Source of the DNA: Escherichia coli O127:H6 str. E2348/69 | Lineage (GTDB): Bacteria > Pseudomonadota > Gammaproteobacteria > Enterobacterales > Enterobacteriaceae | Assembly: GCF_000026545.1 (NCBI RefSeq) | Contig: NC_011601.1 | Length of the DNA: 64,000 nt | Strand: one strand, 5' to 3' | Shown here: positions 15,258 through 30,627 of the stretch, piece by piece | Layout of the letters: every line of letters begins with the position of its first letter | Position numbering within the stretch: the stretch's first letter is position 1 | The notes under the pieces: model-generated | What the model saw: only the letters and a program-made list of their open reading frames with translations | Databases searched by the model: none | Told to the model about the DNA's origin: nothing | Made by a program: the position numbers and the translations under genes

Positions 15258-15342
15258 GCCGAAGTGGCGAAATCGGTAGACGCAGTTGATTCAAAATCAA
15301 CCGTAGAAATACGTGCCGGTTCGAGTCCGGCCTTCGGCACCA
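15258..15342 (+). tRNA. leuX: tRNA-Leu (anticodon CAA)
   Basis: 85-nt sequence gccgaagtggcgaaatcggtagacgcagttgattCAAaatcaaccgtagaaatacgtgccggttcgagtccggccttcggcacca; long variable arm, CCA end encoded. Confidence 0.92.
15312..15342 (+). repeat. attL core: 31-bp 3' end of leuX, repeated exactly at 30373-30403
   Basis: cgtgccggttcgagtccggccttcggcacca occurs at both positions in direct orientation. Confidence 0.85.
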
Positions 15343-15859
15343 AGTCACTAAATTTCTTACAATACAATAAGTTAGGAAATAAAATCTATCTCTTTTGCCT
15401 GTAAGAAATGCTCTGTTATGTCCCTTGAAAAAGCCGCTGTGGTTGATAGTGGTAATTGGGATGTTAACTCATAGCGGCGTGTAGTTCCAAGCGTCAAACA
15501 CGTACTGACTCAACTTGAAAGCTATGACGTAGCCACCGTCTCTAAACAATCCCAAAAACTTTTAGTGAAGCGCATTTTAGCCCGATGCCCCCGTTCTGTC
15601 GCCGTCGCGAGACGCCGCAGGGGATAAACAGGTTTATGGTGGTCACGGTACTTGCAGACCATATGCAAGCTCTGCCAGCGGTTCGGCCTCGCTCCCCTTG
15701 GGTACATGGTCATCCTGATAAGCCTCACTAACTGACATAACTGTGATGTAGTCGCCAGAGGCTCCGCTTGTTGTCTTACCACCAACGGGGCTTATGACTT
15801 TTATTGTGTCAGTAAACGGCATATTATCAGTGATAGTTCAAACAGTTAGTAGGTAGAAA

Positions 15860-16408
15860 ATGAAGACCAAAAGAAAGAGCTTTGATCAATTCTTATGGCA
15901 TGATATTGATTTTGAAGATGATGCTGCAAAACAGGAAGAATACCTTGAATCTGCATTGCCACTTATTGGCCAGATTGTTATGTATTTCAATGCGCTAGAG
16001 AAAGAATTAGATAAAGTCATTTATGAAGGATTCAGCGATCGGTCAGATCAGTTAGGAATAATAATTGTGCATAACATGAATTATGCAGCAAAAGTCGAGT
16101 TATTTAGACGTCACTCCGAATTATTCCATTTGGGTGTTGGGCAGCATGTTGATATGTTTGAAGGTCTTATAAAGGATCTCAAGGAATGTGGACGGTTACG
16201 AAACATTACTGTACATGCTGACTGGGATAGCACTGATGTCGAAGGATATACATATTTAGGCATCAAAATAACTAACAATGGAATATCTCAGGAATATATC
16301 CAGTTTGACCTGGGGTCGTTGGAAAGTATCCTTCAATTGATTTTCAGTACGAGATATAAGTTGAGTGATTATTCAGACTTAAGGGGAGATATACTGGCTT
16401 CACATTAG
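15860..16408 (+). CDS. Hypothetical protein with HEPN-like R-N-x3-H motif (possible RNase/abortive-infection-type toxin)
   Basis: 182-aa ORF in AT-rich DNA; RLRNITVH motif at about residues 112-119 fits the HEPN Rx4-6H signature. Motif-level evidence only. Confidence 0.4.
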   Translation: MKTKRKSFDQFLWHDIDFEDDAAKQEEYLESALPLIGQIVMYFNALEKELDKVIYEGFSDRSDQLGIIIVHNMNYAAKVELFRRHSELFHLGVGQHVDMFEGLIKDLKECGRLRNITVHADWDSTDVEGYTYLGIKITNNGISQEYIQFDLGSLESILQLIFSTRYKLSDYSDLRGDILASH

Positions 16409-16477
16409 TGCCATTTTTTTACTAAATAGCTAACAAATACTATCGGTAAAAGACAACATCGCAATGGTAAAGCTGCC

Positions 16478-16948
16478 GTGAAGAAGACATTGATTGATTG
16501 GATCATAGAGACTGATAACTGGACAGGAATCGCAGCGTGGGCGGGTTTCGGTTTGTCAGTATTTCAGTTAGTAAAATCAAGAACATCGCTAAGACTTTAC
16601 CTCGGGTGTGATCAGCACGAGGACAGAATATACGTTTCGAACATAAGCGCACATGATGTAACGTTGAGTGTAGCCGGTGTCGTAACAGCCAGTGGACGCC
16701 TTAGAATGCTTTCCGACGAGTATTCGGATGAGAACATGATCACACCGATGTTACCAAGAAGGTTGAAAGCACGAGACGAAATGGTCTTGAACGTGCCCTT
16801 CATAAATAAGGCTCATCACAACAAAGTGCATCATCGTGGCGGGGTGTATATCAAAACATCTGACGGCAAGATGTTCAGTGATGTTTGTTGGATTAGACGC
16901 CAATGGTGGTGGTTACTGTCTGTAATACTGCGAGACACAAAGCGATAG
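16478..16948 (+). CDS. Hypothetical small membrane protein
   Basis: 156-aa ORF with an N-terminal hydrophobic helix (GIAAWAGFGLSVFQLV) and a Trp-rich hydrophobic C-terminus; AT-rich. Confidence 0.4.
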   Translation: MKKTLIDWIIETDNWTGIAAWAGFGLSVFQLVKSRTSLRLYLGCDQHEDRIYVSNISAHDVTLSVAGVVTASGRLRMLSDEYSDENMITPMLPRRLKARDEMVLNVPFINKAHHNKVHHRGGVYIKTSDGKMFSDVCWIRRQWWWLLSVILRDTKR

Positions 16949-17159
16949 GACAAGCGAGTCGCAGCTCATATGAGTGCCAACTGACATACGGCTCAGTTGG
17001 AATACTAGGATCGCGACTACGTGTTGTCTGCGAAAAACTGGGACTCAATAGATGGGTGTAGATTTAATTGATACGATCCTGTACGCGAATATTTCTCAGC
17101 ATAAATATCATCCCAGCGTCGGATTATGGTATTCAGAATGTGTGTGATGGTCTCTATCT

Positions 17160-17921
17160 TTATTCAGACCTTTTCTTCTTATCTTCCCATTCTTTTAAAG
17201 TGCTCTGATATCTTTCTTCATTTATTCTTTTTTCCTCGGTTCTGTCGCTTGAGTTGTAATTATCTGTTTTAATTTTCTTGGCTCCTTGGGATATCGGCCT
17301 CCAGTCCTCTCTAATTTTTTTCACTTGCTCGGCTATTTGTGTCATTGGACTCCTTGCTCCTAAATAGCTAACCCCCTCGAAAGAAGCCATATCATAAGAA
17401 TATTCATTGAGTTCTCTTTCTGTAGATCCGGGCTGTTTTGACCAACTGACACTAATAGAATAAATTTGATCCTTAATTTGCTCATACTTGCAGAGATTGC
17501 TGTTGAGAGAGTGTCCGTTTTTTAATACGCTGACCTTGCTAAATGGTACGCCTCTATTTTTTCTATGTTCTGCATTAACGAGAGGGGGATCAAATTCGAC
17601 CGCTATATCATAGGCTGGTGCATTTCCAGTATTAGCGATATTAATGTCAAAATAAAAAGCAGCCCAAGAGTTTGGTTCAAGAGTCACAACAACATGTGGT
17701 TGAACTGATGCGTCAACCATCCTTTTCGTTTCGTTTGCTAATAGCCTTGTTACTCTCCACAAGAAAAACGTAGCAACTGCTGTTAGCAGTGCTGCAAAAG
17801 CAGAGATCATTGTGCTTATAGTATCTATATGCTGTGTGATGAATTCGATCATTCTTCTCCCTCGAAATATAGTGCTTATTGTTATCAAAGGTAAGATAGC
17901 TCCCGGCTTGAAAAATTGCAC
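17160..17921 (-). CDS. Hypothetical membrane-anchored protein (probable true start at internal Met near 17852)
   Basis: 253-aa ORF; N-terminal TM helix (ISAFAALLTAVATFFLW) then a soluble domain and a charged K/E-rich C-terminus. Confidence 0.4.
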   Translation of the reverse strand: MQFFKPGAILPLITISTIFRGRRMIEFITQHIDTISTMISAFAALLTAVATFFLWRVTRLLANETKRMVDASVQPHVVVTLEPNSWAAFYFDINIANTGNAPAYDIAVEFDPPLVNAEHRKNRGVPFSKVSVLKNGHSLNSNLCKYEQIKDQIYSISVSWSKQPGSTERELNEYSYDMASFEGVSYLGARSPMTQIAEQVKKIREDWRPISQGAKKIKTDNYNSSDRTEEKRINEERYQSTLKEWEDKKKRSE

Positions 17922-18314
17922 GCTTATGGTTGCCCCTCCCTCGACGGTTAAGGCTTCAACTTCCCCCGTGCGCCTCTCCCAGCCGAAGGCTGGGCGGGCT
18001 GTATATCGATTTGCCTTCCTCTGTGGCGTTTATGACCCTGTTTCGCGTTCTTACCGTGAGGCTGTGGGTTAGGGTTACTCTTCTCTTTAAACGCTAAATC
18101 ACTCCTGAATCTCCACTGTTAAAGCACTTTGCGTTGATGCTTGGCGCTTCTCTTGGCTGTCGTTATTGTTTTGGCTTTGGTGTCATCAATCGTTCGATTC
18201 TTGCTACCTGTCTGAGTGATTACTATCTGGTATCATCAATTTAGGGTTTGACTAAATGCCACCACCAATGCAATGATGCTACCGTTTTGTGATACCAGAC
18301 GGGTGAGGTGAACC

Positions 18315-18884
18315 ATGAGGACTTTTATCTACTGCCGCGTTTCAACACGCGAGCAGGATACGCAGAATCAGGTGCTGGCTATTGAGCGTGCCGGGTATAA
18401 GGTGCCGGAGAGCAGGGTAATCAGCGAGGACATTTCCGGCAGCGTTCAGGCTATGCAGCGCCCTAAGTTCCGGGCGATGGTTGAGCACAAGCTGGAAGCG
18501 GGAGATCAGCTTGTCGTGCTGAAACTGGACAGGCTGGGGCGTGACAACATCGATGTGCAGCAGACCATCGACATGCTGTTAGAACGCGGCGTGAAGGTGG
18601 TGTCTCTTGACCTGCCAGCGCGTGATCTGACTTCATCTGAGGGCAAGCTAATCCGCCAGATGTTTGGAGCCTTTGCTGAGTTCGAGCGAAACCGTATCCG
18701 TGAGAGGACGCTGGACGGGCTGGAGAAGGCGAAAGCCAATGGCGTTAAGCTGGGACGCAAGGAAGCCACCGACACCACTCAAAAGGTGCAGGAGCTGCGG
18801 AGTGAGGGGCTGTCTCAATCGAAGGTAGCGAAGCATCTCGGCGTTAGCGTGAGCACCGTTAAACGTCACTGGAACAAGGGTTAG
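18315..18884 (+). CDS. Serine recombinase (resolvase/invertase family)
   Basis: 189 aa; catalytic-serine motif YCRVSTREQ at the N-terminus, LDRLGR motif, C-terminal HTH (SQSKVAKHLGVSVSTVKR). Confidence 0.85.
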   Translation: MRTFIYCRVSTREQDTQNQVLAIERAGYKVPESRVISEDISGSVQAMQRPKFRAMVEHKLEAGDQLVVLKLDRLGRDNIDVQQTIDMLLERGVKVVSLDLPARDLTSSEGKLIRQMFGAFAEFERNRIRERTLDGLEKAKANGVKLGRKEATDTTQKVQELRSEGLSQSKVAKHLGVSVSTVKRHWNKG

Positions 18885-19559
18885 GGGTGATGACCTACAA
18901 CCAAATGAGGTGCCAGCACTGGCCGTTACTGGGCTGTGGGAGATGGATGACCTACAGCTTTTGTATTTATTTCAGAGTGTTATGTTATGCGAAATCTCGT
19001 AATGCTATGATTTATAGTGTATTTTCGTATTACTTGCGGCTCTTGATGCGAAGAGATGGCGGGGCTTTAGCCGTGCCAGACGATGAGCATCAAGATCAGA
19101 TTGTGAATGTGATTCATCACTGAACAATTCGAGGGATGGGGCAGGGGAAGGGATCAAAGGCTGCGTTGTCCAATCACTAAGCTAGATTTGAAGCTGGTCA
19201 ACACGTTAGTAGTATCTTTAAAGTCGCATTTTAAATACATGTACAAAAAAGGGTTCTTCCCCTACATCCCCTTCTCCTAATCAGTGTTATCGCTTCACGC
19301 TCACCACTGGCTGCGCTTCTCGCTGTGCTCCAGCCCACTCGATCGCCTTTGGCTCATTCCCGGTCTTCGCCTGCTGTGATGCTCGGCCACTCTACGCAAC
19401 CGTGCTTGCCGTGGCATGCAACGCGGCGGGGATGTGTAGTGGAACGGTACTTTTTATCTATATTATTAATTTAATCAATCACATACTGTTATCGGTAGGT
19501 ATTCTTCAAAACATCTTCATTCATTTCTGTATCGTTCAATCATCTTTCTTGTTCGTTTC

Positions 19560-19700
19560 CTTTCAGGTCTTAGCCGTTGGTCATTGGTCTTACTGCCCGC
19601 TGTGCTACTGCCAGCTATGGCACGCCGTCACGGTCTACTGTCTGTCACCTGTCCTACTGCGTTCACTGTCTGCCGTCTGTCATCCTGTCGGATTCCATCC
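19560..19700. repeat. Pyrimidine-rich cluster of short iteron-like repeats (YTACTGYC / CTGTC) next to an AT-rich tract; candidate replication origin
   Basis: tcttactgcc, gctactgcc, tctactgtc, cctactgcg and cactgtctgcc within about 100 bp; AT-rich stretch at 19440-19560 immediately upstream. Confidence 0.3.
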
Positions 19701-20149
19701 GTTGACGTTCCGCGCTCGCTTGTTTCGGCTGCGCCGCGCTCGCTCTGCGTATCTAGCGATACTATATCACTATAGACACTTTCATAATTATATAATGATT
19801 ACAGTAACTTATGTTTTCTGTTTTAAAAGCTACTAATAAGGAGATATAGAGCATTACTTACCCGCTTTTGACCGACAAAAATCGCGTTGTTAAGTATTGC
19901 CAGCCCAGGCTCAATAAGGCTTAGCGAGGTGGTGGCTAAAAAATGAGCTAATGAAGGTATCTACTAAGGAGAAAGAATAACTCCCGAAGCGCGACAAACT
20001 CTCCGATTTTGAAAGTGACTATTAAGGCAGATAAAGACACTGACACTGTTGCTGACATGAAAACTTCTAAAAGGGCAGAGAGTCTGCCGAACCCGTACCG
20101 CTGACCCAACCTGAGCTAATACCTACCCCTATTTTCTGGAGATTTCACC

Positions 20150-21994
20150 ATGCCAACAAACCTACGCCGCCTGCTTGCGCAGGCTGCCGACGCTGACCCG
20201 CTCAATACTGCGGACGCAGATGTACAGCAAATGATCGCTGACGGGATTGTTATTCGACGTTCCAAGATATGCCCTGTAAAGCGTAAACCCGTTAAGGCGG
20301 CATACAACACAAAGACCGAAGAGTTTTATTACAATGCAGATGGCTCCGCGATGACCTTGCGGGAGTGGCGAACGCTGCACGGTGTTCAACCGAAGAAACA
20401 AAAACAGCGCTCTGACACTGGGTTGCGGCAAGTCATCCAGCCCGGCGACGCGATTCACTGCCGACGCGCTGAGATTGAGCAATGGCTTAATAAGAAGCCC
20501 GCTCGTTATGTTGACCCGCTGCCGCCAGATTTTCCCGGTGTTCGCGTAGACGATGCCGCATTGAAACCGCGCGAGCACGCCGTGCCGGAAGCGACAACCG
20601 GACAGAATGCTTTTCTCAAAGCCTGCCGCGAGTTCCTGATTTGCGATGAGAAGACCATGCGCCGTATCAGTCGGGGCATGAACCAAATGGAAGCTATGCG
20701 CAACGCAGATTTCAAACGCTACGGAGACTCAGGGGAGTTTCGTCAATTGTGGTGTGGAGAGTCGAAGCCTACCGAAGATAGATTTAATAGTTCTAATCAT
20801 CATTGTGACCCGAACGGCTTGGCTGCTTCGCCGTCTGTGCCGCCACTGAATACTGCACCGTATGAGTTCCGCCCGCTGGCTCGCTGTGACCGAAACGCAC
20901 GCGTTAGCCTGCTGCCACCTGATGGGCTGGAGTGGAGGCCGGGGCAGTTGTCTGTTGCTGATGCGATCTTTTCCCGTGGCAGTGATGTGCTTGCCGTACT
21001 GCCGACCGGGTATGGCAAAAGCGCCGCCTTCACTTATCCATTGATTTATGAGTCCCGCGCTGGCATTGGCCTGTCTGTAATCGTGGTTCCTACTAATACC
21101 CTTAAGCGTCAGATTCTCCGCCAGTTGCGGGAGGCTGGCATTCACGCTGTGGCCTTTGGCGATAAGCTACCGAGGCACCGCAACGCACAACAACTGGCGG
21201 GACTAGCAGCCGGGGCGTTCCGGGTTGCTGTTGTTTCGCCTGAACATCTGGTTCCGTCGAGTCAGGTTCTCGCGGCGCTGATGGCTTATGGCGTTGATCG
21301 TTTTATTATCGATGAGGCACACACGGTCAAAGACTGGGATTTCCGCCCAGCTTACGACGCAATGCAGCACACACTACAGAATGCTTTTCCCTCGGCTCAG
21401 CGCTGCGTGTTTACGGCTACTCTACTACGAGAAAATGAGCGCGGTTTAATGGAGGCGCTGGGATGCCGTGGCGATTACGTTACATTCCGTGCTGATGTTG
21501 CTCGCGAGAATATCCAGTTGATTCCGGTCAGGCAGTGCCGCCAGCGATACCGCGCGGCTGTTGGTCTGGTCGAGGCTCTGCCAGAGGAAGAGAAGACGCT
21601 CATTCTAGTCAATGACCTTAAGACGTTGCGGGCGTACCTGAAACTCTTCGGCGACCGGGCGCGCCCATATCACTCGAAGACGATGCACCTGAGCAACGAG
21701 GAACGCCACGCAAACGCTGAGTGGTTTGCCTCTGCGCCGGGCGCGATTCTGATTGCTACTAAAGCCTTCGGGCTGGGTGCTGATGTTCCTGATATCCGTA
21801 ACGTTGTCGTGACATACGTTCCCGATGACTTGCCTGATCTCGTTCAGATGATTGGACGAGCCGGGCGCGATGGGGAACCTGCCCGCGCTTTTCTGCTGTG
21901 GTCATCGCTGGCGCTGGATGTTGCTCCTGATGAGCTTGCTTACTTCTACCGCCCTGAAAACTGTAACTGGCAGTACATCGCTAAATACCTCTGA
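20150..21994 (+). CDS. RecQ-family superfamily-2 DNA helicase with a ~270-aa N-terminal domain of unknown function
   Basis: Helicase motifs LPTGYGKS (Walker A), IIDEAHTV (DEAH box) and GRAGRDG (RecQ-type motif VI). Confidence 0.7.
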   Translation: MPTNLRRLLAQAADADPLNTADADVQQMIADGIVIRRSKICPVKRKPVKAAYNTKTEEFYYNADGSAMTLREWRTLHGVQPKKQKQRSDTGLRQVIQPGDAIHCRRAEIEQWLNKKPARYVDPLPPDFPGVRVDDAALKPREHAVPEATTGQNAFLKACREFLICDEKTMRRISRGMNQMEAMRNADFKRYGDSGEFRQLWCGESKPTEDRFNSSNHHCDPNGLAASPSVPPLNTAPYEFRPLARCDRNARVSLLPPDGLEWRPGQLSVADAIFSRGSDVLAVLPTGYGKSAAFTYPLIYESRAGIGLSVIVVPTNTLKRQILRQLREAGIHAVAFGDKLPRHRNAQQLAGLAAGAFRVAVVSPEHLVPSSQVLAALMAYGVDRFIIDEAHTVKDWDFRPAYDAMQHTLQNAFPSAQRCVFTATLLRENERGLMEALGCRGDYVTFRADVARENIQLIPVRQCRQRYRAAVGLVEALPEEEKTLILVNDLKTLRAYLKLFGDRARPYHSKTMHLSNEERHANAEWFASAPGAILIATKAFGLGADVPDIRNVVVTYVPDDLPDLVQMIGRAGRDGEPARAFLLWSSLALDVAPDELAYFYRPENCNWQYIAKYL

Positions 21995-22031
21995 GTCGAA
22001 AGGCTCTCCCTGATTCTCTGGAGTTAATCAT

Positions 22032-22469
22032 ATGCCTGTTACCGAACATGCGCAGCGTCGTGCTGCGCGTGCGGATGCGCTCATCACCGCACAACTAGCC
22101 TTTGCCCTGAATGGGTACAACTGGGATGAACTGGCCGAACCTCATCGCAAGACCCTTAATCGTGAGGCCATCATTCGCGAGGTATCTACACCGCTGGAGC
22201 GATATTGCCTGCTGAATGATTGCGAGCCGTGGGAGTGTCTGGCCGCTGTACTGAACCGCATGAAAAGGCCGGATGGCTCGCGTCGCTGGAAAGCCGTCCG
22301 GTTGTCCGACCGGGTTTTCAATGGCCGGGTGCATCCAGTGCGCAAGACTCCTGATGAAGTTTACGCCGCCATTGCCCGCCGCTTGTTCCTGCCGAAGCCT
22401 GTGCATCAAGAAGTGATACAGCACATCCGTGCGCTTGGCTTGTTACCAGTTGGAGATAACCACCAATGA
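22032..22469 (+). CDS. Hypothetical protein
   Basis: 145-aa ORF, co-directional in a tightly packed operon. Confidence 0.4.
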   Translation: MPVTEHAQRRAARADALITAQLAFALNGYNWDELAEPHRKTLNREAIIREVSTPLERYCLLNDCEPWECLAAVLNRMKRPDGSRRWKAVRLSDRVFNGRVHPVRKTPDEVYAAIARRLFLPKPVHQEVIQHIRALGLLPVGDNHQ

Positions 22470-22675
22470 CGAAATCTGAATTTGAAAATGAAACATGGCG
22501 AATGAAGGGCTTGCTTCTTGGGGCGCTGATTCGCCGCCTTGAGGAAGATAAGGCTGGCGAGTCGCGCATGGTCGCAGCGGAGTTATCCAGTGCGGTCAAC
22601 TTCCTTAAGGCCAACGCCGTAGAAGCGCCGGACACATCATTCAACAACGTGTTCCCGGAGGATGACGAACAATGA
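22466..22675 (+). CDS. Hypothetical small protein
   Basis: 69-aa ORF with ATGA overlap with the upstream gene. Confidence 0.3.
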   Translation: MTKSEFENETWRMKGLLLGALIRRLEEDKAGESRMVAAELSSAVNFLKANAVEAPDTSFNNVFPEDDEQ

Positions 22676-22848
22676 CCCCTGAACAATTCAGACAATGGTT
22701 CGCCACGCTGCCACCGAACTATCAGAGCGCCGCACGCACCATGTACGACAACGCCCGCAAGTCGGGCATACATACCGCGTCAAGCCTTGCGCTGATTCAC
22801 ACGTTGGTTACTGACCAGATCAAATTTGATTCGGAGTTTAATTTATGA
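22672..22848 (+). CDS. Hypothetical small protein (58 aa)
   Basis: Not in the ORF track (below 60 aa); start and stop both overlap neighbours in ATGA fashion, suggesting translational coupling. Confidence 0.3.
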   Translation: MTPEQFRQWFATLPPNYQSAARTMYDNARKSGIHTASSLALIHTLVTDQIKFDSEFNL

Positions 22849-23408
22849 CTTTGAGTATTACCGATATCCAGCGCATTAACGCGCTGGCTCATAAGCACCT
22901 AAAGAACAATGAAGAGATTGCAGCGGAGACAGGTCATACCCTGACCGATATTGACGCTGTAATCCGTGGCGTCTATGTCGATGACTTGGCCGAACATTGG
23001 AAAGACGATGCTGATATTACTCTGGCGGAGTACAACGCCATCCGCAGCCGCTATAAGCCCGGCAAGTTGCACCGCGATACAGAGTTTATGATTGCCCGCG
23101 ATATGCTGATTCGCCCTGAGACTGTGCTGGCTATCGCCCATTCCCGCTTTAGCAACGTCCACACGCACCCAGTGCCGAAAGCCGTCAAAGCAAAGCCGGA
23201 GAAAGCGAAAGTAGTGCGCAAGTTAGTGCTTACTGATTTAGATGAAATCCACAAGTTAGAGCGCTTCGGTTGGCCTGCTGCGGAGATCGCCGGGAAGCTG
23301 GGCGTCCCTGTTGAGGTCGTCGCGCATGTGCAACGCTGCCTGAGAAATCGTTGGTCGTACCCGGATACTCTGGAGTCTGTTAACTCCAAATTCAGCGAGG
23401 CTGAATGA
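22845..23408 (+). CDS. Hypothetical protein with a possible C-terminal HTH
   Basis: 187-aa ORF; HTH-like segment GWPAAEIAGKLGVPVEVVAHVQRC. Confidence 0.4.
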   Translation: MTLSITDIQRINALAHKHLKNNEEIAAETGHTLTDIDAVIRGVYVDDLAEHWKDDADITLAEYNAIRSRYKPGKLHRDTEFMIARDMLIRPETVLAIAHSRFSNVHTHPVPKAVKAKPEKAKVVRKLVLTDLDEIHKLERFGWPAAEIAGKLGVPVEVVAHVQRCLRNRWSYPDTLESVNSKFSEAE

Positions 23409-23641
23409 TGGCAGAGAACGAACCGCTGCACCCCGCCGTTAACCCTGATCTCTACGTGAACCTTGACGAACAACGCGAAGGATACGCTCCGATTGAATCA
23501 CAGGGTTGGGATGTGCTGACGCAGAACCTGACCGGGAAAGGTCGAACTGACCCCAGCCAAACACTTAACCAGAATCCGAAACAACGCCCGCACGGCTCCG
23601 TTGGTGAGCGTCGTTGGCTTCGTAAACGTGGATTACTTTAA
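23405..23641 (+). CDS. Hypothetical small protein
   Basis: 78-aa ORF, overlapping start with the upstream gene. Confidence 0.3.
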   Translation: MMAENEPLHPAVNPDLYVNLDEQREGYAPIESQGWDVLTQNLTGKGRTDPSQTLNQNPKQRPHGSVGERRWLRKRGLL

Positions 23642-23653
23642 CGAGGAATTACC

Positions 23654-23893
23654 ATGAGCAAAACTATCGTATTGCTGCCGCCCCGCAAGAATACAGACTG
23701 GGCTGCACAATTAAAGCTGATTTCTGAATCGCTTGAGGTGAGTCAGGCAGACCTCGCCCACGCCTATCAGGTTGATCGTCGGGATATGGGTAAAGCGTAT
23801 CACGGTGTGCGCAAACTGCCGGAGCGTTGTGTGCCTGTTCATATGCTGTTGTTAGCGCAGGTACACGACTTTAGAGCATTATCAGGAGAATAA
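23654..23893 (+). CDS. Hypothetical small protein (possible HTH regulator)
   Basis: 79-aa ORF with an RBS-like aggaa upstream. Confidence 0.35.
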   Translation: MSKTIVLLPPRKNTDWAAQLKLISESLEVSQADLAHAYQVDRRDMGKAYHGVRKLPERCVPVHMLLLAQVHDFRALSGE

Positions 23894-23896
23894 TTT

Positions 23897-24577
23897 ATGT
23901 CTGACCAGAATGTTAATCCGTACCTTTCCGGTGCTGATGCTGCATCGCAGCAATCGCCATACATGGCTGCACCTGTTGGCGCTGACAATGGCGCATCCCG
24001 CTTTAGCTCTGTGCCTGCTGATGCTGATTTCCTCCGTACCCAGCCCGTTAACGGTAATGATGGCGGCCAATGGAATAATGGCAGTATCGCGAATCAGCAG
24101 GATCAGAACGCTGACAGCGCCGGGGCGCAGGTGGGCGATACTATCTCCCTGATGGATGGAACAGCTATTGAGTACACCGCCGAGCTGCAAGGATTGATGG
24201 GGCAGTTTCACCAGTCTGTCGAAAGCCAGCTAGGGCAGGGGACAGTTGACGCTATGTTGCAGTACGCTGGCACGCTCGACGCCGGGACGCAATCGACCCT
24301 TGAACGGATGGTTATGTCTGGCGACCCTGCGCAGATGCAGCGGGCGGTTCAGTATCTGCAAGAGCGTATGGCTGGCGGTTCCATTACCGGTTACGTCCCG
24401 AACGGCCAGACTGCCGCGCAACCTGTCGGAATGTCACATGCTGAGTTTATAGCAGCGTATGACCAGCTTTCGCAGTGGGCGCAGCAATCAGGGTATGGCC
24501 CCGGCCATCGCCAGTACGACGAACAATACCGTGCTCTGGTTGCGCAGCGCTCCGCTGGCAAACGTGCTGGTCGCTAA
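23897..24577 (+). CDS. Hypothetical acidic Q/A/G-rich protein (scaffolding-protein-like composition)
   Basis: 226-aa low-complexity protein immediately upstream of the capsid-like gene; compositional resemblance only. Confidence 0.35.
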   Translation: MSDQNVNPYLSGADAASQQSPYMAAPVGADNGASRFSSVPADADFLRTQPVNGNDGGQWNNGSIANQQDQNADSAGAQVGDTISLMDGTAIEYTAELQGLMGQFHQSVESQLGQGTVDAMLQYAGTLDAGTQSTLERMVMSGDPAQMQRAVQYLQERMAGGSITGYVPNGQTAAQPVGMSHAEFIAAYDQLSQWAQQSGYGPGHRQYDEQYRALVAQRSAGKRAGR

Positions 24578-24716
24578 CGCCCAACGGTGGAATGCGCCCT
24601 GCAAGACTGAGTGCGCACCAACCCGGTACTACCACACCAATCTAAGCGCATGAGTCCCCGCAAGCCGCATTCTGCGCGGCATCTGAAAGCCTGTTTTTAA
24701 TTAACCGAGGTTCGTA

Positions 24717-25130
24717 ATGAGTACCTGTAATTTCCATGCCGTGGTGCGTGTCGCTGACGTGCGCCCGGATTTCGCCTTGCCGCTGGGTAGATGCGACCAC
24801 ATTTACCCTGAGCGTGTGCAGCACGTTTTCAATCCAGACGAAGCGGTTTATATCGTTGCCCGGTCTGCCACATCCGGCACCCGCACATCTGGCGTTAGCC
24901 GTGGGCTTTCCCCTGTGCTGCCGCCGAAGATGGCCGAGCGGATGCGCGAACGTGAACGGCACGAGAAAAACCGAGTCAGACCCCGCAAGGTGATCACTGA
25001 GGCGATACGCGCTGACATTATCGATCGCTCTGCAAAAGGTCAGAAGAATCGTTACATTGCAAGCAAGGTTGGTGTGTCTGAAACCTCTGTGCGGAAGGTG
25101 TTGAACATGGCGCGTATGAGTGCGCACTAG
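24717..25130 (+). CDS. Hypothetical DNA-binding protein (C-terminal HTH)
   Basis: 137-aa ORF; HTH-like NRYIASKVGVSETSVRKVLN. Confidence 0.4.
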   Translation: MSTCNFHAVVRVADVRPDFALPLGRCDHIYPERVQHVFNPDEAVYIVARSATSGTRTSGVSRGLSPVLPPKMAERMRERERHEKNRVRPRKVITEAIRADIIDRSAKGQKNRYIASKVGVSETSVRKVLNMARMSAH

Positions 25131-25349
25131 TGCAAGGTAATACGTTCACCTTACTTCACGCGCACTAACCCCTGAGAACCGTGCCAGCTCTGGCCTCAAA
25201 ACGCCCATTTCGGGGCACCTCATTCCTCTTAATCGATACCGTTCTGAATCCTGCCTCGGCGGGAGGATTACGCACGCCCGCGCCATGACGATGGCCGGGC
25301 CTATCTCGTCAGTGAATCCGCTGGCACAACCTACGTAGGAGTTTTACAT

Positions 25350-26345
25350 ATGGCCGATAACATTTACTCGCCTGACCAGTTCCGCCCACATTATGGCGGG
25401 GTGGAATCTGACAATGATATTCACATCGAGGCTTATGACCGGGATGTCCAGACCCGTTTAGAGTCCAAATCCGTATTTCTGGCCGAGGGGCTGTCTACAT
25501 ACAGGCCGCTGAAAGCCAGCAACCAATATCGTGTTGATCGCCTGAGTGGTGATCTGGAGGTGAAGGGCAGAACCGCAGGGCAATCGCTGGAGCCTACCGC
25601 TGTTAAGTCGGATAAGCTGATTATCTCTGTGGATACGCTGAGTTATATCCGCATCCCGATTGACTATCAGGATGACTGGACAGCACCCACCTTTCGCTCA
25701 GAGCTGAGCCGCAATATCGGTACTGCTCACGCTAAATTCTACGACGAAGCGCACACCATCCAGCTAATCAAAGCGACTGACTTTGTACCGCCGCCGACGT
25801 TGCAACCAACGTTTAACCCGCTGACGGATAATGTTGTCTCGCTCGACCTGACAGCGGGGAGCGAAGAGGACGCCGCAAACGAATTGTCTCACGCCGTAAA
25901 AGCGGCTGCTAATCGCTTTCTCACTGAGAAAGATATTCCGGTGGCCGAGCTGGTACTGCTTATCGACCCGGCTTGGTTCAGCATCCTGATGGAACATAAG
26001 AAGCTGATGAACATCCGTTACAGCCGGGATAGTGGCAACGATTACGCATGGCGTCGAGTTGGCTATGTCGCTTGGGTACGAGTCATTGAGCTGAACAGTT
26101 ACCCGCAGGGAGCCATTACCGCGCATGAACTGGGCGCTGATTATAATGTGACCGCAGGGGAAGCGCTGACACGGGCGACGCTGTTCCGGCCTGCGTCTGT
26201 ACTTGTGACAGTCGAAGCGCAGAGCGTCATCAATCGCCAGTGGGATGAGGAACGCGAAATGACAATGGTGATGGACTCATATCGCCTGTTCAATGTTGGG
26301 CTGCGCCGCCCGGACTGCGTTATCAATTTCCGACAAGCTGCATAA
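25350..26345 (+). CDS. Hypothetical protein, possibly a phage-type structural (capsid-like) protein
   Basis: 331-aa ORF with strong RBS (aggag); size and position after a scaffold-like gene suggest a structural role; no motif-level proof. Confidence 0.35.
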   Translation: MADNIYSPDQFRPHYGGVESDNDIHIEAYDRDVQTRLESKSVFLAEGLSTYRPLKASNQYRVDRLSGDLEVKGRTAGQSLEPTAVKSDKLIISVDTLSYIRIPIDYQDDWTAPTFRSELSRNIGTAHAKFYDEAHTIQLIKATDFVPPPTLQPTFNPLTDNVVSLDLTAGSEEDAANELSHAVKAAANRFLTEKDIPVAELVLLIDPAWFSILMEHKKLMNIRYSRDSGNDYAWRRVGYVAWVRVIELNSYPQGAITAHELGADYNVTAGEALTRATLFRPASVLVTVEAQSVINRQWDEEREMTMVMDSYRLFNVGLRRPDCVINFRQAA

Positions 26346-26361
26346 CTGGAGGGGCTGAGTC

Positions 26362-26871
26362 ATGGTTAATGATGCTTACGCCCCTGAGCTGTTGCGATCC
26401 CTTTTCCTGTATGACCCGGTGACAGGTCGCCTGCACCATAAAGCTAGCCGATGCCGGGTTACGGCTGGCTCCTATGCTGACTCCACCCGGCGAGCTGATG
26501 GCTATCGTCAAGTTGCCCTGCGACTGGATGGCAAGCAGTACCAGCTAAAAGCCCATCGCGTAGCGTGGATTCTTGCGCATGGTGCTATTCCCCACGGTAT
26601 GCAGATCGATCACATCAACGGTACCCGTGACGATAACCGCTTATGCAATCTGCGATTGGTTACGCAGCGGGAAAACGACCAGAACCGACGCAAGGCAAGG
26701 GGGTATAGCTGGAATAAGGGCTGTAGCAAATGGGAGGCTTACATACGCGTTGGTGGTGTACTCCGTCACCTTGGCTTATTCACATCCGAAGCGGCAGCTC
26801 GTGCTGTGTACCTGAAAGCTAAAGCCAGATACCACCCCTCAACGCCTGACGATTTATTGCAGGCTGCCTAA
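26362..26871 (+). CDS. HNH endonuclease (phage-type, with AP2-like region)
   Basis: 169-aa ORF; HNH core IDHINGTRDDNRLCNLRLVTQRENDQN. Confidence 0.7.
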   Translation: MVNDAYAPELLRSLFLYDPVTGRLHHKASRCRVTAGSYADSTRRADGYRQVALRLDGKQYQLKAHRVAWILAHGAIPHGMQIDHINGTRDDNRLCNLRLVTQRENDQNRRKARGYSWNKGCSKWEAYIRVGGVLRHLGLFTSEAAARAVYLKAKARYHPSTPDDLLQAA

Positions 26872-26889
26872 CCCTCGGAGGTTCCATTA

Positions 26890-27315
26890 ATGGCTGATGA
26901 AAAGCCGATTAGGTCGCTGGCAGGTGATGACCCACGCCGCCAGCAGTACGCCGAACTGTTGGCGCAGGCTAGCCGCATGACTATTCCCCGGCTGCATCCG
27001 GGCGATGCTAACAGTGTGATGAGTCAGCTTGCAACGATGCTTGGCGCACCTGTCCCGATAGTCGGTGCTATGACTGAGCACGCCGCTGCATGGCGTGCCT
27101 GTCTGCTTGAGCAAGGACTTGGCGAGCTTCTGGATGGCTTGAGTAAACAGGTGCTGACCATCTTCTTTCTGCTCTGCTGGAGAGACAGCGCCTTGCGATT
27201 GGCTGGTAAGCAAAAGAAACGGCTTACAGCCGCCAGCGAGGGTTTGACCATTGAGCAATACCGGGCAATGCACCCGGCTTACAGAGAGGATAAAGAACAT
27301 GATAACCACGATTAA
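26890..27315 (+). CDS. Hypothetical protein
   Basis: 141-aa ORF in the operon. Confidence 0.35.
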   Translation: MADEKPIRSLAGDDPRRQQYAELLAQASRMTIPRLHPGDANSVMSQLATMLGAPVPIVGAMTEHAAAWRACLLEQGLGELLDGLSKQVLTIFFLLCWRDSALRLAGKQKKRLTAASEGLTIEQYRAMHPAYREDKEHDNHD

Positions 27316-27598
27316 ATTAAGGTGGCGGTACATCGAGACGCCGCCAATGACTGGCGCACTCGCTGACCTGAAACAGTGGGTAATGAATGCCGTAGAGCCT
27401 GAGCTTGAGGCTGAATTTCGTAAGCTGCTGGGGCAGATGCGTCGCAATGGTATCAGTGATGGGCGCGTAAATGCGGTGGCTGATGAGCTTTATGCTCTGG
27501 TATGCCAACGCCAGCGCGAAGAATACGAAGCCTGCAAGCGGGCTGCCTCTGACAATGGAGACTTTGAATCATGGTTACACGGACAGACCAGCTACTAA
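27299..27598 (+). CDS. Hypothetical small protein (start chosen at the ATG with GAGAGGA RBS)
   Basis: Track ORF 27251..27598; internal ATG at 27299 has a good Shine-Dalgarno sequence. Confidence 0.35.
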   Translation: MITTIKLRWRYIETPPMTGALADLKQWVMNAVEPELEAEFRKLLGQMRRNGISDGRVNAVADELYALVCQRQREEYEACKRAASDNGDFESWLHGQTSY

Positions 27599-27996
27599 GA
27601 AAAGCTATGAGGGGCTATCTGGAACACCTTGGCAACATGCCGCTGGCGGAACGGATTACAAATGCTGCTGTATTCGAAGATGTGTATCGCTTTTTGTTGA
27701 ATGGTTCCGGGCGGCTGGAGCTGCGCCGCGCTGACGTGGCTGCCGTCCGTGTCTTCCTTTGGAACTATCAATACCGCCGCTGTGCTGTGACAGGTAAGCC
27801 GCTGCGCCTTGCGTCTGCCGTTCTGGATCACTGCCACCGAACCGGGCGCGTGCGTGCTGTGGTGCATCGTTCTGCTAACGCTGCTGAGGGAGGCCGCTAC
27901 GTTGGGCGGACGTGTGGTGTTAGCGTTACGAATCTAAGGGCTATGATTGGCAGCTATCGCAAGCAATACACTGGTATTGGCATGTTATATCCATAA
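27571..27996 (+). CDS. Endonuclease VII-like (DHCH-type) nuclease
   Basis: 141-aa ORF with CAVTGKPL...LDHCHRTGRVR motif resembling the recombination endonuclease VII family signature. Confidence 0.5.
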   Translation: MVTRTDQLLRKAMRGYLEHLGNMPLAERITNAAVFEDVYRFLLNGSGRLELRRADVAAVRVFLWNYQYRRCAVTGKPLRLASAVLDHCHRTGRVRAVVHRSANAAEGGRYVGRTCGVSVTNLRAMIGSYRKQYTGIGMLYP

Positions 27997-28037
27997 CTGC
28001 GGGGTAATAAACCCCGCCGAAATAGTAGCGTAGCCAC

Positions 28038-28940
28038 TCAAACAGGAATGTTGTAGTAATGACAAATTGCATTAGTTAGTAGAGCTGGTGCAGCAGACGC
28101 TGCAATATTTAGCGTCCCCGCATATGCTTTACCAATCATATTTACAACCCACTTCCCAAGGCTATCACTGAAATTGTCCGGGGTAGTTGGGGCGGGTGAT
28201 TCTTGTATAGCTTGATGAAGGCTCTTAATATCTTCATCATTAGCGCCCCAATCCTTGAGCTGCTTTTCAAGCGAGTTGAAGTCTCCAGCGTTGACAGTAT
28301 TATTTTGTGAAATGTCCCCGTTACCAGAGCCAATAACGCCAGCATTGTTTACGTTGCCATGAATGTTGGTCACGTTATGGACAGTCATTGGCGCTACCTC
28401 TTTTTCTCTTAATGAAAACTGTAACCCTTCGCCTAAAATACCCTTTGACTCTAAGTCTAAAGACCAGTCGAGGATCTTATTCCTAACGGTAGTAATTACA
28501 TGTTCTAGTACACCAGCGCTTATAACCCATACCATCTCAGTCTTTTGTCCGATACTTTGAGCTAATGTATCAGCCATCCAATCCGGGAGAGGTAAAAAAG
28601 GGTTTTCTCCTTTATTGCTCATCTTTTTTATAGATGATATTGATTCTGTAATGTGAAACGTTGATACCATTGCATTTAATTCCGCGTCGTTGAAGTTGAC
28701 CACAAGCGGAACCCAGCTCTGATGTTGGGGACTATATGCTTTTAACTGCGATTGACCTTTCCTGTATTCAGGAACCGTATCAAAGCTGGGATAGCCATTT
28801 AATTCGAGCTGTATCCACTCGGTCAAATCGCTGAGGCCGAGCTTCACTGCAATCATTTTGGCCTTCATGAGTACAGATAAAATGTCGGAGTCGGGATCGC
28901 ACGCTAGTGCTTGAAGTTCAAGAACTGGTGAGTTAGCCAT
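28038..28940 (-). CDS. Hypothetical protein adjacent to the integrase (candidate abortive-infection/defense cargo)
   Basis: 300-aa ORF on the integrase strand, convergent with the main operon; N-terminal region loosely resembles Abi-type proteins, from memory only. Confidence 0.4.
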   Translation of the reverse strand: MANSPVLELQALACDPDSDILSVLMKAKMIAVKLGLSDLTEWIQLELNGYPSFDTVPEYRKGQSQLKAYSPQHQSWVPLVVNFNDAELNAMVSTFHITESISSIKKMSNKGENPFLPLPDWMADTLAQSIGQKTEMVWVISAGVLEHVITTVRNKILDWSLDLESKGILGEGLQFSLREKEVAPMTVHNVTNIHGNVNNAGVIGSGNGDISQNNTVNAGDFNSLEKQLKDWGANDEDIKSLHQAIQESPAPTTPDNFSDSLGKWVVNMIGKAYAGTLNIAASAAPALLTNAICHYYNIPV

Positions 28941-29027
28941 ATCAAGACCTTAGTATTGTTTTGATAAGGTATCTTACCCGCATCGAACCATGCAGTCTAA
29001 GGTTCGCAGGCCAAACTCACCCATGAG

Positions 29028-30239
29028 TTAGATGTTTATTCCTTCATGCTGGATGAGTTCGACATACTTACCGATCTCTATAGGGGAAGCTGCATTTTTC
29101 GAGTAAGTTTTGAAGCTCTCTGTACTCCCGCGCTCATGACCGACGAGCAGGGCAATACGATCTTCTGGCACTTGAGCACGGTCGAGCTGTTGCACAAAAG
29201 CATGGCGGAGTGAGTGAAACACTTTTCTCTCTGCGGCAGGCTCGCCAAGAGCTTTACGCTTTGCTCGCGTGAATTGCTGCGTATGCCACGTTGAGCGCTT
29301 CCCATCGGCCCGGTCTGTTATTGATGCGTGATAGAACAGAAAACCGCTATGTGTGGTCTTGAGCAATGACTTCACGAGAGGGATTATCTTGCTGTGTACA
29401 GGGACGATTCGCGCCGCGCTCTTAGTCTTCCCCTCGGTGATCTCAAAGCACAATATACCCTCGATAGTTTTAATACTGCTTTCACGTAGCGTACATATCT
29501 CATTGATCCGCATACCGCTGTATGCACCAATAGCCGTTACCGCCTTCATCTCGTCATCAAGCAAGGCATAGACCTTTGCCAGCTCTCCCGGTGCGAAGAC
29601 TTCATAGCTGACCTTGCTGCTTTTTGCTTCGAGCGCATGACCGCGCCAAGGATTGTCCTGTGGTGCATCGTGATAGCGATTGCGTGCCAGATCCCATATC
29701 TGCGCCAGTGCGCTTATATAGTTTTGGATAGTTTGGGGCGCTCGCTCAGTTTTGAGCTTATCTAACCAGCCTGTAACTATGGTTCGGTTAATATCCCGCA
29801 ACTGAACATCTTTCTTTTTCAAGTGGGTTAACAGCACCTCTACGGCTTTGTTGGTCTTGGATAACGTGGTTAGCTTTCGCTTCTCGCTGTATTGAAGCAG
29901 GTACAAATCACGCATTTTTAGCAAGGAAGGGCAAGCCTGAATCGATGCACCAAACGATGCGGGGGCTTCCTTGGCGTACACACTGACACGGCGTAGCTCA
30001 TCAATGATTTGGTCTACAGATGAGCCGCCTTGTGGCTTTAGCAGATTCCGTAAGCGAGTCCATTCCAGAGCAATAGCATCTCGAAACAATCGCGCTTGGC
30101 GTATGTCTCGTGTTCCTGTGCTTTTCATAAAGTAGCGCTTCCCTTGGAACAGGTGGCGCATATAGCTGGGAATAGCTATCCGCACGAGGTAATTCCCGCA
30201 GGGATCTAAAACTAGATAACGATCTCTCTTGAAACTCAT
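29028..30239 (-). CDS. Tyrosine-type site-specific integrase
   Basis: 403-aa ORF with C-terminal catalytic motifs (HSLRHAF, LLVGHERG, downstream Tyr); adjacent to the attR repeat. Confidence 0.9.
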   Translation of the reverse strand: MSFKRDRYLVLDPCGNYLVRIAIPSYMRHLFQGKRYFMKSTGTRDIRQARLFRDAIALEWTRLRNLLKPQGGSSVDQIIDELRRVSVYAKEAPASFGASIQACPSLLKMRDLYLLQYSEKRKLTTLSKTNKAVEVLLTHLKKKDVQLRDINRTIVTGWLDKLKTERAPQTIQNYISALAQIWDLARNRYHDAPQDNPWRGHALEAKSSKVSYEVFAPGELAKVYALLDDEMKAVTAIGAYSGMRINEICTLRESSIKTIEGILCFEITEGKTKSAARIVPVHSKIIPLVKSLLKTTHSGFLFYHASITDRADGKRSTWHTQQFTRAKRKALGEPAAERKVFHSLRHAFVQQLDRAQVPEDRIALLVGHERGSTESFKTYSKNAASPIEIGKYVELIQHEGINI

Positions 30240-30372
30240 ACAAACCCCGGTTATGTTGTCGGGGCTTTTTCATGGCTAAACAGTCTGTGAAATGTGCCGG
30301 GGTCATGAGCTTTAGTCTAGCTAGTTCAACAAGTTAACGATGATTGTTGAAGCAAGCTAAGTCGCTATAACC

Positions 30373-30403
30373 CGTGCCGGTTCGAGTCCGGCCTTCGGCA
30401 CCA
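30373..30403 (+). repeat. attR core: 31-bp direct repeat of the leuX 3' end
   Basis: Exact copy of 15312-15342. Confidence 0.85.
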
Positions 30404-30583
30404 CATCGTATGCAAATCGAGTCGCTCAAGGGCGGCTTTTTTTGTGTCTGGGATCCATTAGTTACCTATCTTTCTCGCTATTTTAACTCTCTCAGAGCCA
30501 ACCAATTTCAACCCATCGCAAACGAAAAATGTTGGTACAGGCGTTGGTATTTTCGGTTCGATATTAATTTGTATTAGCTCAGT

Positions 30584-30613
30584 CCTGATCTGACAGCTAT
30601 CTGCCAGATCAGG
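30584..30613 (-). terminator. Hairpin terminator downstream of hsdR
   Basis: Perfect 9-bp stem cctgatctg...cagatcagg with a 12-nt loop, about 15 bp past the hsdR stop. Confidence 0.55.
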
Positions 30614-30627
30614 TTCGGATTAATACA

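Follow-up and report, generated by a model that had tools for sequence, protein, structure and literature searches.

A 15-kb island at leuX of Escherichia coli E2348/69 is a probable satellite of virulent T7-like phages

The satellite P4 integrates at leuX, has about one-third of the genome size of its helper, and travels in a T=4 shell, compared to the T=7 shell of the helper. It carries a copy of the helper cos packaging site and needs the portal, terminase, and tail of the helper. The DNA analyzed here is a 64-kb stretch (64,000 nucleotides; referred to below as the window, whose positions are used throughout) that matches the chromosome of enteropathogenic E. coli O127:H6 E2348/69 with 100% identity. 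A co-directional operon at 22032-27996, in which nearly all genes carry the RefSeq label "hypothetical protein," is enclosed in a 15,061-bp element (15343-30403) integrated at the tRNA-Leu(CAA) gene leuX. The operon is probably the core of an integrative phage satellite whose helpers are virulent T7-like phages, most likely of the genus Bonnellvirus. The element shares with P4-like satellites the leuX site, the size ratio, and hotspots of defense cargo, which have been described for P4-like satellites as hotspots of anti-phage genes (PMC9122126). However, P4 re-sizes the capsid protein of its helper, the temperate myovirus P2, by means of Sid, an external scaffold, and its other markers are the alpha primase-helicase, Psu, Delta, and Epsilon; PHROG and NCBIfam comparisons of the element's proteins gave no match to any of these families.

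Phage-inducible chromosomal islands that form capsids (cf-PICIs) have all the genes for head formation and packaging and take nothing but tails from the helper. That gene set consists of portal, protease, connectors, and terminase, and the helpers are temperate siphoviruses. According to the cf-PICI report (bioRxiv 10.1101/2022.09.08.507074), these islands, such as EcCIEDL933, spread across genera, carry an HNH nuclease, and form satellite-sized capsids from satellite proteins; like the element in E2348/69, they are integrated Enterobacteriaceae islands of ~15 kb with their own HK97-fold major capsid protein. In contrast, the element has just a capsid protein and a truncated scaffold, both T7-type; it has a RecQ-like helicase in place of Pri-Rep, and it carries cis DNA from a virulent podovirus. 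PHROG comparisons revealed no portal, prohead protease, head-tail connectors, TerS, or TerL in the element, and its capsid protein belongs to PHROG 267. With respect to classical PICIs, which are defined by an int-alpA/stl regulatory module, a Pri-Rep primase-replicase, TerS, and capsid-remodeling genes and lack a capsid gene, there was no match for AlpA, Pri-Rep, or TerS in PHROG, NCBIfam, Pfam, and hhalign comparisons, and the element has a capsid gene of its own. The locus fits none of the models with which an initial annotation made from the sequence alone (the first-pass annotation) had suggested comparing it, namely, PICI, cf-PICI, and P4-like satellites.

Infection, not prophage induction, activates two satellites of strictly virulent phages: the PICI-like element (PLE) of Vibrio cholerae, whose helper is ICP1, and PICMI of the Vibrionaceae. 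PLE forms small capsids, has nucleases against its helper, and remodels the helper coat protein with TcaP. However, the gene sets and hosts of PLE and PICMI are unrelated to those of the element, and neither parasitizes an RNA-polymerase-encoding podovirus. PICMI and the VEIMEs have minimal gene sets with no capsid or remodeling genes (PMC10803314, PMC9618062), whereas the element has genes for both a capsid protein and a scaffold homolog. The Mulch/Flayer satellites of Streptomyces, such as MiniFlayer, have their own encapsidation genes and a virulent helper (PMC10690885), but the hosts are actinobacterial, the lineage is that of siphoviruses, one satellite is without integration, and they are unrelated to the element in sequence and synteny. 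The element is most probably a satellite outside P4, PICI, cf-PICI, PLE, and PICMI and would represent a new family with a new class of helper and a new level of capsid autonomy. In work by Chung and Hinkle in 1990, DNA with a T7 promoter/origin and the junction of the genome ends was reportedly replicated and packaged by T7 in trans. The same logic is proposed below for a copied Bonnellvirus segment and promoter-like sites of the element; the T7 concatemer-junction plasmids differ in that they are artificial, have no capsid genes, and are packaged as full-length concatemers.

The 331-amino-acid (331-aa) product, which the first-pass annotation had called capsid-sized, is a T7-type major capsid protein: it aligned over its full length with solved podovirus major capsid proteins in the PDB (E = 9e-78 to 2e-52; most of these entries have seven chains) and matched PHROG 267, "major head protein" (E = 3e-64). 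In a tblastn search, 753 phage records were matched, nearly all of them Autographiviridae, and the closest were virulent E. coli phages of the genus Bonnellvirus (forsur, 56% identity). The capsid proteins of satellites related to the element form three lineages that are 58 to 62% identical to each other and 49 to 57% identical to Bonnellvirus-type capsids, which are 76 to 85% identical among themselves. The satellite capsid is therefore an old, satellite-specific lineage and not a recent capture.

The 226-aa product, which had been described as a low-complexity, acidic, scaffold-like protein, has a pI of 4.4 and is rich in A, Q, G, and S. Its C-terminal 100 residues align end-to-end with the C terminus of the 410-aa Bonnellvirus scaffold (BLASTP, 31% identity, E = 1e-4); with moderate confidence, it can be regarded as a scaffold shortened to roughly half length. 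Both nucleases named in the first-pass annotation, an HNH endonuclease (phrog_99, E = 3e-53) and an endonuclease VII (phrog_423, E = 1e-15), were recovered, and the latter has 33% identity to forsur_55 (BLASTP, E = 8e-7), including the C-terminal G(L/M)(M/L)YP motif. The 99-aa product was considered as a TerS, but despite a BLASTP match to the TerS of forsur (E = 3e-5), it had no match in Pfam or to phrog_891, and the hhalign E value was 0.16. A profile search of 1.8 billion proteins with this product returned 10 matches, all family specific.

No portal, terminase, tail, protease, RNA or DNA polymerase, or core proteins were found in the element by PHROG, NCBIfam, or the size of open reading frames (ORFs). 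The lack of a large terminase, portal, and tail genes had been remarked upon from the sequence, and the proposed search for terS and portal homologs gave the same picture, with no family match and no ORF of portal or TerL size; the only ORFs above 350 aa encode the helicase (614 aa) and the integrase (403 aa). The Autographiviridae gene set (single-subunit RNA polymerase, DNA polymerase, portal, tail tube/nozzle, core, and TerL), which is present in the true relatives forsur and L011, is absent from the element. As in satellites generally, the virion and packaging gene set is incomplete, being limited to the capsid protein and the scaffold homolog.

A non-coding segment upstream of the helicase gene (19590-19839) is matched in 15 phage records, of which the annotated ones are bonnellviruses; the match to forsur DNA first surfaced via tblastn with a spurious ORF. 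The phage counterpart is the most conserved non-coding DNA of Bonnellvirus phages, with ~100 nt that are invariant among phages that are only ~80% identical genome-wide (at least 10 Bonnellvirus genomes). In every annotated phage record, the segment follows the endolysin gene, the last of the late genes, and precedes the SAMase gene, the first of the early ones, directly upstream of four strong sigma-70 early promoters; the record of phage Kc261 opens at the first gene. Among 5,426 complete E. coli genomes, the segment was found solely inside these elements (54 genomes). From its position, the segment may be the junction region that holds T7-like terminal repeats and packaging signals. The idea that it is more conserved than the coding DNA held against strain 550 (99%) but failed against L015 and L016 (87 to 90%). 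There is also a second Bonnellvirus match, in which 17902-17945 of the window corresponds to 25917-25959 of forsur (44 nt, 84%), just past the phage endolysin gene. This match lies ~430 nt upstream of the main segment in the phage and ~1.7 kb upstream in the element, where the recombinase gene is between them.

The 13-mer TGAAAGTGACTAT (context TTATGAAAGTGACTATAG) is the putative core of the Bonnellvirus RNA-polymerase promoter. It ends in CTATAG, as in T7/SP6-class promoters, and occurs four times in forsur with ≤1 mismatch, compared to 0.04 expected. One site is just downstream of the RNA-polymerase gene, ahead of the late genes; another is at the start of the second gene after the RNA-polymerase gene (forsur_9, position 4855); a third is intergenic, ahead of the DNA-metabolism genes; and the fourth is on the minus strand inside the segment shared with the element. 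Two of the forsur sites are at positions 4588 and 33180. In number and placement, the sites resemble the set of four promoters described in phi80-18, a 42-kb podovirus (PMC7316996). In the window, there are two occurrences compared to 0.06 expected, and both are just upstream of the operon: a minus-strand copy with one mismatch at 19772-19784, inside the shared segment, and an exact plus-strand copy at 20010-20022, ~125 nt upstream of the helicase start codon. The exact copy is carried by the last of three GAAnGTnnCTACTAAGGnGA-like repeats. Arrays of such repeats are found upstream of the operon in every relative examined, and in the divergent lineage L009 (Logan SRR35738729 contig, 2925-3330), the operon is preceded by nine tandem ACTAAGG-centered repeats with ~30- to 90-nt spacing. 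The upstream repeats are candidates for helper-RNA-polymerase promoters or replication iterons. A scan for sigma-70 promoters and terminators gave counts at or below shuffle expectation, with no plus-strand match between 18300 and the operon, although this is weak evidence.

Two further features were observed in the promoter regions. Bonnellviruses have a 26-nt inverted pair of the putative promoter (forsur, 4582-4607 and 26463-26488; glasur, 20848 and the record start), of which one copy faces the late genes past the RNA-polymerase gene and the other is on the opposite strand in the inter-end region. Because the core ACTATAGT is palindromic, the terminal promoter copy could fire both ways. 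In the element, a 15-codon mini-ORF, MKTSKRAESLPNPYR, is located at 20057-20104 between the last promoter-like repeat and the helicase start.

The boundaries of the element are set by a 31-nt exact direct repeat, CGTGCCGGTTCGAGTCCGGCCTTCGGCACCA, which forms the 3' end of leuX (15312-15342) and recurs at 30373-30403. Like integrative satellites in general, the element has its own recombinase and attachment sites, with a tyrosine integrase at the far end in addition to the 31-nt repeats. In the first-pass annotation the unit was 22032-27996, and the operon is indeed there, but this span is too narrow; the leuX repeat places the true unit at 15343-30403. The tRNA was the sole match in an Rfam scan. 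The GC content of the core (53.7%) is nearer to that of the phages (55.4%) than to that of the chromosome (50.3%). The T7-like affinity, the boundaries, the integrase, the helicase, and the phage-derived segment all go beyond the first-pass annotation, and the segment and the promoter-like sites may point to a specific helper.

The distance from attachment site to attachment site is similar in five family members with different cargo (15,061, 14,803, 15,400, 15,158, and 15,157 bp), and the ratio of the element to the genome of a 42.5-kb phage is 0.355. This value is close to the P4/P2 and SaPI/80alpha ratios, and the heads in which those satellites travel are T=4 forms of T=7 heads. Of the 5,426 complete E. 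coli genomes, 58 have the scaffold-capsid module, always as a single chromosomal copy. In a scan of one genome per species, capsid proteins with 92 to 94% identity were found in Trabulsiella odontotermitis, Enterobacter chuandaensis, Kluyvera ascorbata, and a Kosakonia sp., and the core synteny is shared by E. coli, Trabulsiella, Enterobacter, Kluyvera, and Kosakonia. In an Enterobacter hormaechei-type lineage (L009), gene order is kept at 58% capsid, 43% helicase, and 36% integrase identity, and a third capsid lineage is represented by P0005. Every core gene tested is intact, and dN/dS values of 0.06 to 0.5 indicate purifying selection (capsid, 0.06 to 0.15; helicase, ~0.12; scaffold, ~0.15; 99-aa gene, 0.15 to 0.5). 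The first-pass annotation had left open whether the locus was a satellite or a degenerate prophage. A satellite is indicated by the T7-type capsid, the truncated scaffold, the lack of portal, terminase, and tail, and the integrase island flanked by attachment sites, whereas the intact core, the dN/dS values, and the occurrence in several genera and three lineages speak against degeneration. Conservation of the reduced gene set, under selection, over such deep divergence means that a degenerate T7-like prophage is not what the element is.

Family members can exchange their integrases and insertion sites; tRNA-Gly is used in L021 and a different site in L020. The latter satellite (E. coli 5735, NZ_CP154887.1, 1-22000) lies within a 19,013-bp direct duplication, with an integrase, a DUF4145 gene, and two hypothetical genes on both sides of the satellite, near ETT2 type III secretion genes. 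This arrangement suggests that, at another attachment site, islands have formed in tandem or have been amplified. Cargo is carried at two hotspots, one per end, with different genes in each member, and includes AbiTii, type II restriction-modification, an NmeDI-type system with Rap1a, DUF3800, and a gene 83% identical to one from a P2-like phage hotspot. At the right hotspot, which holds AbiTii in E2348/69, relatives have restriction-modification systems or other genes.

Table 1. Features of the leuX element and its borders in the window (positions in nt)
Feature	Position	Strand	Evidence or remarks
leuX tRNA-Leu(CAA)	15258-15342	+	Last 31 nt (15312-15342) = attL; ARAGORN, Rfam, direct repeat
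Left cargo hotspot, GC 42%	15343-18300		Contents differ in every relative (L002, L019, L022)
Left cargo ORFs	15860-16408; 16478-16948; 17160-17921	+; +; -	
Small serine recombinase (invertase/resolvase type)	18315-18884	+	phrog_125 E = 5e-55; NCBIfam; synteny
Non-coding control region, 1.27 kb	18885-20149		Family-conserved 19010-19464; AT-rich ~19440-19560
Phage-derived cis segment	~19590-19839	+	87-98% identical to Bonnellvirus non-coding DNA
Three ~21-nt repeats, GAAnGTnnCTACTAAGGnGA-like	19832-20035	+	Motif matches start at 19832, 19963, 20018
RecQ-like SF2 helicase, 614 aa	20150-21994	+	Pfam DEAD and Helicase_C; TIGR00614; phrog_16
Six small translationally coupled genes	22032-22469, 22466-22675, 22672-22848, 22845-23408, 23408-23641, 23654-23893	+	
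Truncated scaffold homolog (putative), 226 aa	23897-24577	+	BLASTP, hhalign to Bonnellvirus scaffold
Small helix-turn-helix protein	24717-25130	+	Weak "late transcriptional activator" matches
Major capsid protein, T7-like (Autographiviridae), 331 aa	25350-26345	+	phrog_267, tblastn, PDB
HNH_3-type homing-type endonuclease	26362-26871	+	phrog_99; PADLOC HEase
141-aa protein, no assigned function	26890-27315	+	Conserved in close family
99-aa family-specific protein, TerS-sized	27299-27598	+	BLASTP to forsur TerS E = 3e-5; profile tests negative
Endonuclease VII (DNA-branch resolvase)	27571-27996	+	phrog_423; homologous to Bonnellvirus endonuclease
Right cargo hotspot, AbiTii abortive-infection gene	28038-28940	-	PADLOC AbiTii E = 2e-48; convergent to operon
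Tyrosine integrase, 403 aa	29028-30239	-	phrog_1 E = 3e-35; far end of element
attR, second copy of 31-nt leuX 3' end	30373-30403	+	Direct repeat

The operon consists of 14 intact plus-strand genes (20150-27996; Table 1), of which the helicase gene lies upstream of 22032 and the other 13 lie downstream of it. The first-pass annotation had counted about 14 ORFs on one strand with ATGA junctions; the ORF list and RefSeq gave 13 in its span, or 14 with the helicase, and the stop-start overlaps at 22466, 22672, 22845, and 23405 were all exact. Additional overlaps of 17 and 28 nt occur at 27299 and 27571. The helicase has a family-specific, conserved N-terminal region of ~260 aa, and the AlphaFold model of the N-terminal 270 aa had a pLDDT of 44, too low for a fold search. 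It is the presumed replication protein, and no primase or recognized initiator was found in the element. The helicase also scored 919 bits (E = 2e-277) on one PADLOC "DpdF" model, PDLC02858. In the Dpd defense system (7-deazaguanine DNA modification), the DpdF helicase is accompanied by DpdA/B/C and further Dpd genes. A PADLOC comparison that left nine small core proteins aside gave no other Dpd match, and RefSeq annotates no Dpd gene in the element, which therefore does not qualify as a Dpd system. Helicases of this island family were probably the source of the PDLC02858 model, and false Dpd calls are therefore possible in defense annotation.

Even L009, a divergent lineage, keeps all six of the small genes that follow the helicase. 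Modeled with AlphaFold, the 187-aa product (22845-23408) had a pLDDT of 79 and three predicted helix-turn-helix-like bundles, and a Foldseek search with it returned no PDB match with an E value below 0.1; the other five small genes had no match to any known family. The slot of the small helix-turn-helix protein is variable, with this gene absent or replaced in L009, L014, and L017, and the HNH gene is at another position in L009. The slot upstream of the control region always holds a recombinase, but the sequences are just 26 to 98% identical among members.

The cargo ORF at 16478-16948 is intact, encodes 156 aa, is unannotated in RefSeq, and has no NCBIfam or PADLOC match. The minus-strand cargo gene at 17160-17921 (PHROG 11802) encodes a product with 83% identity to the "putative lysogenic conversion protein" of the P2-EC53 and R18C hotspot, and thus one accessory gene circulates between P2-like phage hotspots and a satellite hotspot. 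Directly past attR is a second island (30404-43230) that is dense in restriction and defense genes: type I HsdR/S/M (30628-36645), DUF4942, McrB/McrC-like genes (38147-41508), an ORF named phosphorothioated-DNA-binding restriction endonuclease in RefSeq (41571-42500), and an HNH endonuclease (42742-43230). Since this island starts immediately after attR, the leuX site holds at least two tandem islands. In strain 550, a P4-type integrase is next after the same attR.

From these sequence relationships, we infer helper dependence, packaging, and each functional step of the following cycle; the phage-derived cis DNA, the constant size, and the spread across genera lend indirect support to helper-dependent induction, packaging, and transfer. 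The element, with its integrase and attachment repeats, would lie silent at leuX. Upon infection, the single-subunit RNA polymerase of the helper would read the promoter-like sites upstream of the helicase gene, and the 14-gene operon would be transcribed. The element would then excise and replicate with the RecQ-like helicase, possibly with the upstream repeat array as the origin. Its own capsid protein and the half-length scaffold, which has a capsid-binding C terminus, would assemble on the portal and core proteins of the helper. The resulting capsids would probably be small and T=4-sized, a volume into which 15 kb fits and the 42-kb helper genome does not. The copied phage segment may let the helper terminase cut and package concatemers of the satellite, with branches trimmed by endonuclease VII. 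Helper tails would complete the particles, in which the element and its defense cargo could reach new Enterobacteriaceae; spread across genera is evident from the family, and the vehicle is the proposed part.

Several points weigh against the satellite reading. Virion evidence was sought and not found: the two satellite-type matches in IMG/VR are integrated copies with flanking DNA, and a 15,229-bp Logan contig stops in the attachment repeat and shows no circular overlap. Host DNA is degraded by T7-like phages, and therefore the escape of an integrated element needs explaining. The promoter assignment comes only from motif and position, and the upstream repeats could be iterons and not promoters. 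The physical genome ends of Bonnellvirus are not reported in the genus papers, so that a mimic of the genome end or of pac is suggested by position. The scaffold homology is weak in profile-profile comparison (hhalign E = 1e-4, probability 58%), and the assignment of the 99-aa protein as TerS failed the profile tests. The phage-like segment is absent in the family members L014 and L009, and L017 keeps 48 nt of it. Members without the Bonnellvirus segment may, speculatively, use helpers that have not yet been sequenced, in which case the cis module would set helper specificity.

It is also conceivable, although unlikely, that the element is a defense island against T7-like phages that is spread by other means, with a decoy capsid protein, a truncated scaffold, and nucleases that poison helper heads or cut helper DNA. 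The cargo does include AbiTii and restriction-modification genes, HNH and endonuclease VII nucleases are present, and the IMG/VR and Logan copies give no direct sign of packaging. Interference would be expected of a satellite anyway, because known satellites also block their helpers. However, if there were no packaging, it would be difficult to account for the constant size of ~15 kb despite varied cargo and for the non-coding segment copied from phages, and a mere decoy would have no need of a scaffold together with a full-length, strongly purifying-selected capsid protein. Capsid proteins that are 92 to 94% identical occur in five genera, yet no conjugation or mobilization genes were among the PHROG and NCBIfam matches of the element.

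A true satellite without small capsids is similarly improbable. A concatemer of about three units would fill full-size T=7 heads, and the element's capsid protein would replace or mix with that of the helper. Three units come to 45.2 kb, which is near the 42.5-kb helper genome but ~6% above its length. In the nearest solved capsid homologs, the asymmetric unit contains seven chains, as would fit T=7 shells, whereas the ratio of 0.355 matches the classical T=7-to-T=4 satellite systems, and the half-length scaffold and divergent capsid lineage would be expected for size redirection. Plasmids with the T7 concatemer junction are packaged as ~40-kb concatemers. Concatemers are also packaged in VEIMEs and PICMIs (PMC9618062, PMC10803314).

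A decaying prophage of a temperate, LUZ100-like T7 relative, from which the polymerases, portal, tail, and terminase have disappeared, is very improbable and largely refuted; Autographiviridae-type capsid, scaffold, and endonuclease VII genes and an integrase are present, and temperate T7-like phages exist (PMC10134795), but the missing genes have left neither pseudogenes nor fragments, one and the same reduced gene set occurs in three lineages with ~40% capsid difference, purifying selection acts on all core genes tested, size is uniform, and the helicase, six small genes, and 141-aa and 99-aa proteins are without counterpart in T7-like phages.

In the full-text literature searched, which left most subscription journals outside and in which absence is not proof of novelty, neither a satellite of T7-like/Autographiviridae phages nor this island was described. 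Literature was found on P4-like satellites, PICIs, cf-PICIs, PLE, PICMI, VEIMEs, Mulch/Flayer, mycobacterial EPIPs, and jumbo-phage satellites. We tentatively propose that the element may be a member of the first satellite family of T7-like virulent phages, one that combines promoter mimicry for the helper RNA polymerase, small heads formed from its capsid protein and half-length scaffold on the helper portal, and a swappable cis module for helper specificity.

No virulent phages have been studied better than the T7-like ones, which have wide use in therapy and biotechnology. If the satellite reading is correct, satellite biology would extend to RNA-polymerase-encoding podoviruses, with a simple and testable mechanism of induction, the reading of satellite promoters by the helper polymerase, which is a route not seen in known satellites. 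The capsid autonomy of the family would be intermediate between that of P4 and SaPI, which use the helper coat protein, and that of cf-PICI, which has a full head. As a warning, therapeutic Autographiviridae could mobilize chromosomal islands. The family would be a vehicle that moves AbiTii and restriction-modification genes among Escherichia, Enterobacter, Kluyvera, Kosakonia, and Trabulsiella, and a previously unannotated island of the reference enteropathogenic strain E2348/69 would be explained.

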